Notes: generated by a model not told the origin, from the letters alone. Counted from the first letter of the stretch, positions 1-62,407 are shown. The stretch: DNA of 64,000 bases from Antedon mediterranea (GCF_964355755.1 NC_092671.1:25928070-25992069), one strand, 5' to 3'. Numbers and translations are program-made.

Positions 1-1460
1 AATGAAGAATCTGGGAAGTTTACAATCAAGCAACAACACCACATTCTACGTGAATTCTGCTGTACGTGAACTAGCCTTAATACCGCCTGATTACGGTATA
101 TAGGCCTATCAGTATTAGCTTCAGAATAAATGACGACGCATTTGTTGTACCTTGATAGACAGAGCCCCAAGCAGACAGCCCACATTACAGATAATCTGTT
201 CTGCAGCACAATACAACTGTACACGCGGTGTGATTCAACTAAAAGCAGTAAAAAGATTTTGGCACACAAGGCGTATCATATAATTTGCGGACCATGACCG
301 AAGCACTTCCGCTTCGATCTATTCGACGAAAATCAAAAAAGGATAACTATTTTCTGCTTTATACTTAATTTAATGTAATGGTGATCTAATAACAGGCGTA
401 ACAACACATAATACATATTGTAGTTTAATACTGGCTTAAATATTTTTGTTTTATATAAACTGTATTCTAAAAAATGACAATTTAGAACTTAATTTTGCAA
501 TAGTACCTAATTTGGCGCCTTAAACGCCAAATTAAGTGCGGTACCTCATTTGGCAGTGGTACCTCATTTGGCGTGACACTCCTACTGTTCTCTATCCCGT
601 TTGTCTTAATTTCCAAGTAAAAATGAGGTACCACCACGTAACTCCTTATGATTAGGCCTATTATCATAGAAGAGTACTATACGGACGTCGTACCTGGAAA
701 TCACGAGAATTCAGTGTTTGTTGACCAATCATTTTTTAAAGAGCCGTATCTGACCATTGCATTGCCCTGTCTGTAAAATTACAGCAGGCCTACTTTATAT
801 TATTGTGTTTTCCCTGTTTATCGATACCATGAAGGAAAACGTTTTTGTTCAATCAGAAAACTTTGCGAGATTTTTTTTAATGGATATTATAATTTATAGT
901 TAGTCACCTGATTTTTGTGGCAAATCATTAATAGTTTTGACATTGTTAGGGTTAGGGACTATAAGACAGATTTTGGTTGCATGATTGTGGAAAACCATCA
1001 ATGTGGGTTTTTCTTCATACAAGCTACAGCCAAAATATAATAGGGGTATATATTTTTTCAAAGTCATCGTCAAACTCTGAGAGTCAATACAGTATTTCAA
1101 ACGCATTCTTTCACCTCTAATTGCTCACATTTAATTAATAATATACTGAAATAAATTCGAGAAAACATTAACTTATTGTGTTTTGTTTTATTTATTGATC
1201 GTTGTTTATCGTTTGTAAACCACAGAAAACCACAACTATAAAGAATAAAACATAAATTCACAAAATGCAACAAATTAATACAGTATTTGCGAGTGCAATC
1301 ATGAAACATTAATATTATAAGTACTTTATCGAAACATATAAAAATAATTGTGCAGATAATAGCACGTTGATATAAAATTCGTTCTATTTACAAGGAATTC
1401 ATTTAATATTTAAATTTATTTCAAACGAGTTTTATCCGGAAGATTCGGTAATTGAGTTGT

Positions 1461-1698
1461 CTACATGTGGCGTTTCATGTGAAGAGACAAATGATCAGAA
1501 CGAGAGAAAGCTCGTTCGCATAGATGGCACTGGAAAGGTCGATCACCAGTGTGTTTACGATAATGCCTGGTTAGCTCATCAGATCGTGCAAACTTCCAGC
1601 CACATCCTTTCCAGTTGCAAGCATAAGGTTTTTCTCCTGTGTGCGTTCGGAGATGAGCTTTCAGGTGCGAGCTCTTTGTGTAGGTCTTGTTACAGCCT
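1461..1698 (-). pseudogene. KLF2/4: KLF2/4-like copy with 636-bp internal deletion (most of the zinc-finger region only, no ATG)
   Basis: Junction ttacagcct|tgctaaagcc joins finger 1 directly to the 5' leader. Unit is 1956 bp instead of 2592. Confidence 0.9.
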
Positions 1699-3370
1699 TG
1701 CTAAAGCCTTGTTGGAATTTAAGGTACAGGTGAATCATTGAATTATCATATAATTTGCGGACCATGACCGAAGCACTTCCGCTTCGATCTATTCGACGAA
1801 AATAAAAAAAGGATAACTATTTTCTGCTTTATACTTAATTTAATGTAATGGTGATCTAATAACAGGCGTAACAACACATAATACATATTGTAGTTTAATA
1901 CTGGCTTAAATATTTTTGTTTTATATAAACTGTATTCTAAAAAATAGTTCTTTTCTAATGAAGAATCTGGGAAGTTTACAATCAAGCAACAACACCACAT
2001 TCTACGTGAATTCTGCTGTACGTGAACTAGCCTTAATACCGCCTGATTACGGTATATAGGCCTATCAGTATTAGCTTCAGAATAAATGACGACGCATTTG
2101 TTGTACCTTGATAGACAGAGCCCCAAGCAGACAGCCCACATTACAGATAATCTGTTCTGCAGCACAATACAACTGTACACGCGGTGTGATTCAACTAAAA
2201 GCAGTAAAAAGATTTTGGCACACAAGGCGTATCATATAATTTGCGGACCATGACCGAAGCACTTCCGCTTCGATCTATTCGACGAAAATCAAAAAAGGAT
2301 AACTATTTTCTGCTTTATACTTAATTTAATGTAATGGTGATCTAATAACAGGCGTAACAACACATAATACATATTGTAGTTTAATACTGGCTTAAATATT
2401 TTTGTTTTATATAAACTGTATTCTAAAAAATGACAATTTAGAACTTAATTTTGCAATAGTACCTAATTTGGCGCCTTAAACGCCAAATTAAGTGCGGTAC
2501 CTCATTTGGCAGTGGTACCTCATTTGGCGTGACACTCCTACTGTTCTCTATCCCGTTTGTCTTAATTTCCAAGTAAAAATGAGGTACCACCACGTAACTC
2601 CTTATGATTAGGCCTATTATCATAGAAGAGTACTATACGGACGTCGTACCTGGAAATCACGAGAATTCAGTGTTTGTTGACCAATCATTTTTTAAAGAGC
2701 CGTATCTGACCATTGCATTGCCCTGTCTGTAAAATTACAGCAGGCCTACTTTATATTATTGTGTTTTCCCTGTTTATCGATACCATGAAGGAAAACGTTT
2801 TTGTTCAATCAGAAAACTTTGCGAGATTTTTTTTAATGGATATTATAATTTATAGTTAGTCACCTGATTTTTGTGGCAAATCATTAATAGTTTTGACATT
2901 GTTAGGGTTAGGGACTATAAGACAGATTTTGGTTGCATGATTGTGGAAAACCATCAATGTGGGTTTTTCTTCATACAAGCTACAGCCAAAATATAATAGG
3001 GGTATATATTTTTTCAAAGTCATCGTCAAACTCTGAGAGTCAATACAGTATTTCAAACGCATTCTTTCACCTCTAATTGCTCACATTTAATTAATAATAT
3101 ACTGAAATAAATTCGAGAAAACATTAACTTATTGTGTTTTGTTTTATTTATTGATCGTTGTTTATCGTTTGTAAACCACAGAAAACCACAACTATAAAGA
3201 ATAAAACATAAATTCACAAAATGCAACAAATTAATACAGTATTTGCGAGTGCAATCATGAAACATTAATATTATAAGTACTTTATCGAAACATATAAAAA
3301 TAATTGTGCAGATAATAGCACGTTGATATAAAATTCGTTCTATTTACAAGGAATTCATTTAATATTTAAA

Positions 3371-60490: not shown

Positions 60491-61316
60491 CTACATGTGG
60501 CGTTTCAGGTGAAGAGACAAATGATCAGAACGAGAGAAAGCTCGTTCGCATAGATGGCACTGGAAAGGTCGATCACCAGTGTGTTTACGATAATGCCTGG
60601 TTAGCTCATCAGATCGTGCAAACTTCCAGCCACATCCTTTCCAGTTGCAAGCATAAGGTTTTTCTCCTGTGTGCGTTCGGAGATGAGCTTTCAGGTGCGA
60701 GCTCTTTGTGTAGGTCTTGTTACAGCCTGGGTGTGAACATGTATGTGTCGTTGTTATTTTCCTTCCCCATGTTCTGCGCCCTTTCCTTCGGTTTACCTGT
60801 GGATTCTGAAGTGGTTGTGACGTCAGAACACTTTCATTTGAAGAGTTGATGAGCAGGTCCATGAGTGGTGAAGTTGGAATAGAAACAGTCAAATGTGTAA
60901 GGTCAGAAGGTGCAAACATTATCCATATCTGACCGCATAAGTGGACTGTGCGGTTCCTGTTTTATCGCCATGCCCATTGATGAATCGTCAATATAACGTT
61001 TCTGTTGATCTGCGTTAGAATTGTTCAAGATAAAGTCCAAGTTGAGCAAATTATCGTAGCAGTCCGCAATGGATGATGCGGGTGGGGACGAACGCATACT
61101 CGACGAACAGTCACTGACCGATGCTAGGCTGTTTGGTGAACATGTCTCTGTGCGTTGTTGACCTACCATGCTGTGATCCCAGTCGTGTAATAGCGACTCA
61201 ACATCATTTAAAACCTGTGAGGGTAAAACATACGGAGGTTGATAAGTCATTTGTGGCATATAAATCCTCGGCACATAATTATATGGTGTTTCCCCGCAGT
61301 AATAGTGGTAAGCCAT
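60491..61316 (-). pseudogene. KLF2/4: Terminal KLF copy, frameshifted and most diverged
   Basis: 2-bp deletion at ~60914 (tgcaaacatt vs tgcaaaaacatt) splits the ORF. Private substitutions: NPQV, KGRR, RKIT, HLKRHM, PYNY, LLNLD. Confidence 0.9.
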
Positions 61317-62407
61317 TTCTATACGTCCCCGCACTACGATTTTTTCAAACAGAATGTGTGATTGCTAAAGCCTTGTTGGAATTTAAGGTACAGGTGAATC
61401 ATTGAATTATCATATAATTTGCGGACCATGACCGAAGCACTTCCGCTTCGATCTATTCGACGAAAATAAAAAAAGGATAACTATTTTCTGCTTTATACTT
61501 AATTTAATGTAATGGTGATCTAATAACAGGCGTAACAACACATAATACATATTGTAGTTTAATACTGGCTTAAATATTTTTGTTTATATAAACTGTATTC
61601 TAAAAAATAGTTCTTTTCTAATGAAGAATCTGGGAAGTTTACAATCAAGCAACAACACCACATTCTACGTGAATTCTGCTGTACGTGAACTAGCCTTAAT
61701 ACCGCCTGATTACGGTATATAGGCCTACAGTAGTAGCTTCAGAATAAATGACGACGCATTTGTTTTACCTTGATAGACAGAGCCCCAAGCAGACAGCCCA
61801 CATTACAGATAATCTGCTCTGCAGCACAATACAACTGTACACGCGGTGATTCAACTAAAAGCAGTAAAAAGATTTTGGCACACAAGGCATATCATATAAT
61901 TTGCGGACCATGACCGAAGCACTTCCGCTTCGATCTATTCGACAAAAATAAAAAAAGGATAACTATTTTCTGCTTTATACTTAATTTAATGTAATGGTGA
62001 TCTAATAACAGGCGTAACAACACATAATACATATTGTAGTTTAATACTGGCTTAAATATTTTTGTTTTATATAAACTGTATTCTAAAAAATGACAATTTA
62101 GAACTTAATTTTGCAATAGTACCTAATTTGGCGCCTTAAACGCCAAATTAAGTGCGGTACCTCATTTGGCAGTGGTACCTCATTTGGCGTGACACCCCTA
62201 CTGTTCTGTATCTCGTTTGTCTTAATTTCCAAGTAAAAATGAGGTACCACCACGTAACTCCTTATAATTAGGCCTATTATCATAGAAGATAATTAGTTTA
62301 TCTTACAACGCTTTTAAAATCTTTTACAATTTCAGTTGGTTAATAACCAACACCTTATTGCGATGTGGAATGACATACATATACTGTAAGTGACGTATTT
62401 GTCTTTA

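Follow-up and report, generated by a model that had tools for sequence, protein, structure and literature searches.

A likely young tandem array of a shortened Klf1/2/4 gene in the crinoid Antedon mediterranea

In the human D4Z4/DUX4 and the mouse Dux arrays, units about 3 kb long follow one another head-to-tail, and every unit has one single-exon open reading frame (ORF) for a transcription factor. The accessible sections of PMC13558733 describe the genes of these arrays as retrogenes that encode double-homeodomain proteins, are kept as arrays throughout the mammals and are active at genome activation; higher-order repeats and sub-arrays split by transposons also occur. The human macrosatellites TAF11-like and RS447 also consist of kilobase-sized, near-identical units in tens of copies; the excerpted part of PMC3018141 gives units of 3-5 kb that are >99% identical, the TAF11-like unit being a mosaic of transposon pieces with one short ORF, and its array being common to primates and expressed in testis. 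In echinoderms, multi-copy transcription factor genes are found as hbox12/pmar1/micro1 in echinoids and as phb in brittle stars; the available portions of PMC5370098 and 10.1101/2023.10.30.564762 report 6-22 copies with copy-number variation in P. lividus, and intact, intron-containing homeobox copies of pmar1 and phb in mixed orientation, on several scaffolds and with diverged non-coding DNA. Here we describe a stretch of 64,000 nucleotides of the crinoid Antedon mediterranea (GCF_964355755.1 NC_092671.1:25928070-25992069; the whole stretch is called the window), in which a tandem array of a shortened form of the zinc-finger gene Klf1/2/4 was found.

The crinoid locus has features of all these systems but coincides with none of them. 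Unlike the DUX retrogenes, its unit is an internally deleted DNA copy of a zinc-finger gene, together with promoter-proximal and downstream DNA, and it was not seen in a close relative. In contrast to TAF11-like, its ORF comes from a single-copy developmental regulator and no longer has a conserved control motif, and close to half of the units are broken or empty; whereas the pmar1 and phb copies are dispersed, the crinoid array is one homogeneous same-strand satellite of a deleted zinc-finger gene. The KLF/SP survey PMC4558859 mentions, in its available part, only single tandem or retro duplications, and a full-text literature search, beyond whose reach lay most subscription papers, gave no description of a KLF macrosatellite, in agreement with the first-pass annotation, which knew of none of this form. 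We favour, with a probability of about 0.45, the reading that the window holds a real, likely young macrosatellite of a shortened Klf1/2/4, which is likely weakly transcribed, is predicted to encode a longer-lived activator without its degron, and is likely under weak selection.

Structure of the array and its presence in sequencing runs

The array runs on the minus strand over 1..62289, with all units head-to-tail; on the left it extends past base 1, the window edge, and on the right it ends at 62289. Counting by the 12-bp left end of the repeat gave 27 units of uneven length (1.2-3.2 kb), 14 of them intact, 6 broken, 6 without ORF and 1 cut by the window edge, and the single-exon ORF is intact in 14 of the 26 scored units. 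Six-frame translation returned 14 minus-strand ORFs of 275 amino acids (aa) each, with three C2H2 fingers per ORF (Pfam zf-C2H2 x3). One identical protein is encoded by 12 of these copies, and the fingers are free of replacement changes in all 14. The mean pairwise difference among intact copies is 0.23% in the coding sequence (CDS) and 0.56% in the 3' flank, and the non-coding DNA of the array is likewise >99% alike. No inverted pairs of at least 200 bp occur in the window, and Tandem Repeats Finder, with its period limit of 500, gave 0 rows on it. The copies are as follows:

17648..18475, minus strand, reference intact ORF, 275 aa, with a 34-codon N-terminus, a DLDFIL activation-type motif at aa 91 and three fingers at aa 194-274
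3417..4244, minus strand, intact ORF, variant with L36S, Q53K and T166S
6009..6836, minus strand, intact ORF
8120..8947, minus strand, intact ORF
13002..13829, minus strand, intact ORF
15058..15885, minus strand, intact ORF
20238..21065, minus strand, intact ORF
22828..23655, minus strand, intact ORF
29907..30734, minus strand, intact ORF within a 2688/3172-bp higher-order block
32595..33422, minus strand, intact ORF
35767..36594, minus strand, intact ORF
38455..39282, minus strand, intact ORF, variant with H4L
41618..42445, minus strand, intact ORF
44306..45133, minus strand, intact ORF
1461..1734, minus strand, broken copy, leader fused to fingers 2-3
9840..9990, minus strand, broken copy, only leader and first 23 codons
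11672..11905, minus strand, broken copy, only the finger region
25103..25472, minus strand, broken copy, only the 5' part, with a stop after 97 aa
27159..27779, minus strand, broken copy without the first 69 codons, joined to repeat sequence
60491..61316, minus strand, edge copy with a 2-bp frameshift, ancestral P173 and G180 retained, 1.1% from the intact copies
46354..59626, minus strand, five ORF-less units with one common deletion junction (the sixth ORF-less unit lies at 27841-29029)

Six-frame translation and copy alignment thus agree with the first-pass annotation on 14 intact, near-identical KLF ORFs in one orientation and 6 broken ones, and its description of a macrosatellite with a KLF1/2/4-class factor in each unit is borne out by the 27 same-strand units, the fingers and the activation-type motif; its picture of the unit had overlooked the six ORF-less units and the inserts.

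Part of the unit is contained in 19 sequencing runs, of which six were compared: X1 and X5 from the array-bearing organism (organism A), X10, DNA-like, and X13, RNA-like, from a close relative (organism B), and X6 and X8, two samples of another study. None of the 19 runs is recorded as RNA, which carries no information on expression, and the RNA nature of X5 and X13 was guessed or read from the depth pattern. In X1, which may be the assembly's own sample, the array-type contigs have depths of 552, 700, 853 and 953, compared to 17 and 27 for the normal-gene contigs; contig depth is a rough guide and not a copy number, but a ratio of 20-55 excludes that there are only one or two real copies. Both the repeat-gene junction and the junction in the 3' untranslated region (3'UTR) are present in X6 and X8, with an array-type depth of about 16 times that of the normal form in X8 and 22-42 times in X6, the overall spread of 16-55 deriving from the different library types. 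We read X6 and X8 as DNA, because the depth peak of X8 over the fingers (24,690) fits targeted DNA capture; given this capture-like peak, the two runs as RNA were set aside, although X6 alone could also fit RNA. A gap in X8 at 17907-18065 was not used.

X8 carries the alleles of the window and X6 an older set near the edge copy, so that the lineages of the array vary between samples (X6 vs X1 and X8). The X6 variant has an extra 90-bp deletion in the 3'UTR (17555-17644), a 15-nt gap in the CDS (in the region 18265-18344), which is in frame if it is one single gap, and two private substitutions.

An assembler that multiplied one or two copies could have produced the two adjacent units that are identical over 2590 bp, and X1 is possibly the same sample as the assembly. 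On the other hand, the X1 depth of 20-55 times the normal-gene contigs, the array junctions in two samples of a different study (X6 and X8), and the private changes, deletions and inserts that distinguish the units in a position-ordered fashion make such an artefact extremely improbable. The array therefore survives the read-depth check proposed by the first-pass annotation, and it is real.

Origin of the unit and the protein it encodes

The protein closest to that of the array is the 340-aa Klf1/2/4 of Antedon mediterranea (XP_071952453.1; P0001), which clusters with proteins named Klf1/2/4 or KLF2/4. Among solved structures with three fingers, KLF4 scores best (168 bits), followed by KLF5 (157), ZNF568 scoring higher only by summing many fingers. 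The sequence LDLDFIL stands at aa 91 of the array protein, and we take the acidic DLDFIL to be an activation motif; the cysteine motif of an SP-type buttonhead box was not seen just before the fingers when read from the sequence. By its sequence, the array protein is of the KLF1/2/4 class.

Compared to P0001, the fingers are identical in 81 of 81 aa and the shared N-terminal part is about 96% identical, whereas the first 34 residues differ, 74 residues are absent and four are substituted (C75R, G84A, P173L and G180E). Neither the first exon of P0001 nor the 74-aa segment is present in the window, so that the encoded protein is no full-length KLF1/2/4; the array form starts with 34 unspliced codons and not with the annotated exon 1. 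The array protein is absent from a collection of 15 billion protein sequences. The parts of one unit are:

16773..19362, minus strand, reference unit of 2590 bp, identical to the unit 2590 bp rightward
18558..19362, minus strand, repeat part; left end starts TAGGGGTGTCAC, followed by sub-terminal GGTACC repeats and then by 486-bp periodic repeats
18476..18557, minus strand, 82 bp derived from the normal gene, probably its core promoter and 5' leader; an RNA-like contig of organism B ends at 18503
18031..18034, minus strand, junction of an in-frame 222-nt (74-aa) deletion with 4-bp microhomology; SPPAS and TPPTS motifs lost
17645..17647, minus strand, junction of a 3'UTR deletion of about 690-705 nt, directly after the stop, with 3-bp microhomology
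16773..17644, minus strand, distal 3'UTR and downstream flank of the normal gene, with AATAAA at 17384; an RNA-like contig of organism B ends near 17367

Both deletions leave the fingers, the activation-type motif and the poly(A) signal intact, and they are carried by every window copy that spans the sites and by the array-type contigs of X1 and X6; no copy that has only the coding deletion was found in DNA. Immediately past 18557, the normal gene has CCAAT and CACGTG motifs; the window lacks them, and the repeat stands in their place. The repeat part is high-copy in both organisms (depth 1300-6000). Its left end, TAGGGGTG, resembles the hATm transposon terminus TAGGGTG given in the available part of PMC6004678; no right end was found within the window, and the left end was unmatched in metagenome contigs. 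A hAT-like non-autonomous transposon is thus a lead only. Capture of the gene by a Helitron was also considered and dropped, no matching 3' end being seen.

The comparison with organism B shows what the unit was copied from. X10 gave a single contig of 4085 nt with a flat depth of 38, in which the 222-nt and the ~690-nt segments are present and which has neither an intron nor an array junction. X13 gave one unspliced contig of 2083 nt, again with both segments and no intron, which begins 28 nt upstream of the array ATG, at a sequence that we take to be Illumina adapter, and ends about 17 nt past the AATAAA at 17384; over its first 34 codons the frame is kept despite a codon insertion and a silent change. 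This unspliced contig is the dominant form of the normal gene in both X13 and X5, with the same N-terminus as the array. Although contigs are not proof of a start, we would most simply suppose that transcription of the normal gene can also begin at a promoter within the annotated intron and give an unspliced form, beside the two-exon form, which is conserved in Anneissia, and that the array copied the unspliced one. This apparent normal form (18374-18503), with a Tyr/Pro-rich N-terminus of 34-35 aa, is unannotated.

Other origins were discarded. The 34 N-terminal codons as intron read-through, and the unit as a promoterless fragment, were dropped since the unspliced contig dominates X13 and X5 in frame. 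The unit is not a retrogene, because it extends upstream of the inferred start and, at the other end, some 600 bp past the poly(A) signal, and the normal form is itself unspliced. Nor can the 222-nt segment be a spliced intron: no GT-AG placement fits both the junction and the residues of P0001, and the segment is retained in X13. The lack of introns, to which the first-pass annotation had given special meaning, is therefore inherited, the dominant contig of the normal gene being unspliced; moreover, 13 of 78 metagenome KLF loci of invertebrate type run from the activation motif to the fingers in one frame. None of these 78 loci has two finger sets in frame, and none matches the array gene outside the fingers.

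Organism B likely has only the single gene and no array: in the one RNA-like sample compared, X13, no deleted form was found, and in the one DNA-like sample compared, X10, no array junction. Between the normal genes of the two organisms, the CDS shows four silent changes and a difference of one codon. Because organism B likely has a single gene only and the normal genes are so little diverged, the array looks young, and is likely so; the likeness to DUX arrays drawn by the first-pass annotation does not extend to this close relative, as the array was not seen in the two samples of organism B.

What the array protein has lost is the feature that the first-pass annotation, correct about the KLF identity of the copies, had missed. 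Among 118 relatives with a full finger set, 94 were scored and 24 were excluded for having no DLDFIL pattern; 93 of the 94 have a [ST]PPx[STDE] motif 30-70 aa before the fingers, and 82 have at least two, in a set that was found by similarity to the normal protein and is thus biased towards the motif. The array protein has no [ST]PPx[STDE] between the activation motif and the fingers. The lost TPPxS-type motif resembles the Fbw7 degrons of human KLF2 and KLF5; according to the accessible parts of PMC4039140, PMC8177779 and PMC6406609, KLF2 has two FBW7 phosphodegrons, and the degron of KLF5 is SPPSS, whose mutation stabilises the protein. The human mutants share with the array, as far as these sources are available, the loss of an S/T-P-P-x-S motif for turnover by GSK3 and FBW7; however, they are tumour point mutations and have been tested, whereas in the crinoid the deletion is inherited and multiplied and its effect on stability is predicted. 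The 3'UTR is also shortened, from about 980 to 280 nt, and both large deletions likely fall on negative control elements. From the removal of the degron-like motif and of most of the 3'UTR we predict that the array would encode a longer-lived activator without its degron.

Transcription and constraint

X5, another sample of organism A, is mostly of normal type, but in it the exact 56-nt deletion junction accounts for a depth of 267 out of 798 (33%), and at 17696 the array-type base for 460 out of 1522 (30%). DNA carry-over explains this poorly, because X5 lacks the repeat-gene junction that lies upstream of the start, as RNA would predict, and the repeat core reaches only 1.8 times the junction depth, compared to 8.8 times the gene body in X1. 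Moreover, the control X13 has no deletion junction, and therefore the junction in X5 is no routine splice form or library artefact. The transcription check that had been suggested for the array thus gave a sign of transcription, and we consider that the array is likely transcribed; if it is the source, the output per copy in X5 is about 2-4% of that of the normal gene.

This RNA might also have come from a deleted allele or from one founder duplicate with a long 3'UTR and a full promoter, the array itself being silent. X5 has the coding junction but neither the 3'UTR nor the repeat-gene junction, and one deleted copy against two normal alleles would likewise give one third. By contrast, all the window copies that span the sites, and the array contigs of X1 and X6, carry both deletions, and a copy with the coding deletion only was not found in DNA, which makes a silent array very unlikely.

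To evaluate constraint, each change was counted once across the window copies, X6 and the normal gene. This gave 14 changes that replace an amino acid and 11 silent ones (omega 0.35-0.45, P 0.01-0.04), while the normal genes of organisms A and B differ by 0 replacement and 4 silent changes. A single replacement of the 14 lies in the fingers (P 0.055), and it is located in the broken edge copy. The first-pass annotation had set decay of the ORF relative to the spacer as a criterion; the CDS does vary less than the 3' flank, as reported above, but the constraint is only weak. Since C75R and G180E are at near-invariant sites and 12 of 26 units are defunct, the constraint is relaxed and perhaps not wholly gone.

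Several observations weigh against the reading that we favour. Within the array alone the changes are 12 replacement to 8 silent, with omega 0.42-0.54 and P 0.05-0.13, not clearly non-neutral, and where the copies differ silently from the normal gene, this may go back to old allelic variation. As many as 12 of the 26 scored units are broken or without ORF. The near-invariant positions hit by C75R and G180E include a G found in 92 of 92 relatives, and G180E lies in a basic stretch that is presumably a nuclear signal. As regards stability, one SPPAS motif persists N-terminal to the activation motif, and the degron was assigned by pattern only in a protein that is itself predicted. As regards transcription, X5 is only guessed to be RNA, its contigs lack the ~700-nt 3'UTR junction, and other array-specific bases are not visible in it; we assume that graph clean-up of a minor path could remove such a junction, but a source outside the array could also explain its absence.

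Some of these observations enter into a neutral account, in which a shortened gene copy, caught in a repeat-rich unit, was amplified by chance, the ORFs being intact through youth and the RNA being leakage. The six ORF-less units all derive from one deletion, five of them amplified adjacently, and there are six more lesions in the ORF; transposon inserts were multiplied together with the units; near-invariant residues are altered, the upstream CCAAT and CACGTG motifs are lost, the array was not seen in organism B, and the within-array omega is not clearly below 1. Yet the deletion is found on one third of the Klf1/2/4 molecules of X5, the overall silent excess has a P of 0.01-0.04, the CDS is less variable than the 3' flank (0.23 vs 0.56%), the frame is kept in the amplified coding deletions, and both big deletions are at likely negative control elements. 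We hold a neutral satellite to be somewhat unlikely, and prefer weak selection on a weakly transcribed array.

Growth of the array and its possible meaning

Units resemble each other more the closer they lie (rho 0.61; the 91 pairs are not independent), and a dimer of 2688/3172 bp is seen repeatedly as a higher-order block. Because of this, and because inserts and the loss of the ORF were copied with the units, the pattern is that of growth by unequal crossing-over, a process that does not need the ORF. The inserts are:

52327..57830, plus strand, long terminal repeat (LTR) retrotransposon of the Ty3/Gypsy order inserted in the array, about 5.5 kb, with an open 1613-aa polyprotein and identical 162-bp LTRs
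33621..34195, minus strand, 3' fragment of a long interspersed element (LINE), about 574 bp with an ATT tail; a single insertion into the repeat, then copied, in five units and a partial sixth
47935..48247, minus strand, insert of 313 bp resembling a short interspersed element; a second copy at 49679-49991 arose via unit duplication

The LTR retrotransposon landed in the array recently; its LTRs end in CGCCA...TGGCG and not in TG...CA, and the target duplication is 3-4 bp. Pfam gave no match for the LINE fragment, which we take to be of the L2 type. Chance chimeric ORFs occur on the minus strand where the repeat reads in frame into the LINE fragment (33695-34492 and 39546-40343; 265 aa) and where it is in frame with a 5'-truncated KLF copy (27159-27923; 254 aa). 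In the unit, no tRNA gene and no small-RNA gene was found, two matches of the latter kind being below the cut-off.

The right edge of the array begins mid-unit, 107 bp upstream of the first of two U5 small nuclear RNA (snRNA) genes, which suggests that the array was inserted at a new site beside them. These genes flank the array on the plus strand at 62396-62515 and 63029-63149 (Rfam 78.7 and 95.5 bits). In the one closer to the array the 5' end is altered, and it is within the likely promoter region of this gene that the array starts. Between the U5 genes and the window end, a short element with inverted ends, resembling a miniature inverted-repeat transposable element, was read from the sequence at 63325-63465.

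Taken together, the course that we propose is as follows. In the unit, 82 bp upstream of the start codon, the ORF of the unspliced form and the distal 3'UTR are followed by the high-copy repeat, as seen head-to-tail in the window, and it bears two deletions at 3-4-bp microhomologies, which removed 74 aa and about 700 nt of 3'UTR and spared the fingers, the activation-type motif and the poly(A) signal. The unit would then have landed beside the U5 snRNA genes, and unequal crossing-over, blind to the ORF, would have enlarged the array. It would give an mRNA of about 1.1 kb, at a few percent of the normal level per copy, summing to about half of it in one sample. The protein, having no TPPxS motif, is predicted to escape GSK3/Fbw7-type turnover while binding the same sites, and the outcome would be a raised basal Klf1/2/4 activity rather than a sharp pulse.

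A pulse, at genome activation or in the germline, is what the first-pass annotation had in mind; in a wider form of this reading, a D4Z4-like array would be silenced in the adult and fire briefly at these times or in regenerating tissue, with the dose set by copy number. The short single-exon units with fingers and activation-type motif intact would suit it, and the DUX arrays and the pmar1/phb expansions are precedents, within the partial extent of the sources cited above; in the available part of PMC7916379, klf1/2/4 is up in the gut regeneration of one sea cucumber, though not in two others. A second crinoid gene model also holds three tandem Klf1/2/4 copies. Nevertheless, DUX arrays, in the accessible sections on them, persist across mammals, but this array was not seen in the close relative; the loss of the degron predicts a lasting signal; and each copy would yield, in X5, some 2-4% of the normal gene's output. 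We regard such a pulse as decidedly improbable.

The second crinoid model is that of Anneissia japonica (XP_033111180.1; P0137), 788 aa long and named zinc finger protein 236-like, in which three tandem, almost identical full-length Klf1/2/4 copies are fused; unlike the array form, they retain the motif. The model reflects either another duplication event or haplotypes that were left unmerged, and Klf1/2/4 may have been duplicated more than once in crinoids.

The most far-reaching form of the selective reading is that of a newborn gene amplifier, a Klf1/2/4 without its degron and most of its 3'UTR in 20-50 copies, giving a stable activator that would be used in embryos, germ cells or regenerating arms. 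We think this unlikely, but if it were true, a D4Z4-like system would have been caught at birth, on a family of reprogramming factors.

The known gene-bearing macrosatellites, such as D4Z4, are old, and their birth is hard to study. Here the first steps of an array are testable, because one can see the parent gene and the deletions together with an older copy at the edge, variant lineages and an array-free relative. The unit resembles an allele by which a KLF2/4-type regulator has naturally gained stability, here in many copies and in an animal that serves for the study of regeneration. Finally, about a third of the apparent Klf1/2/4 RNA in this species may be the deleted form, by which expression studies would be confounded.

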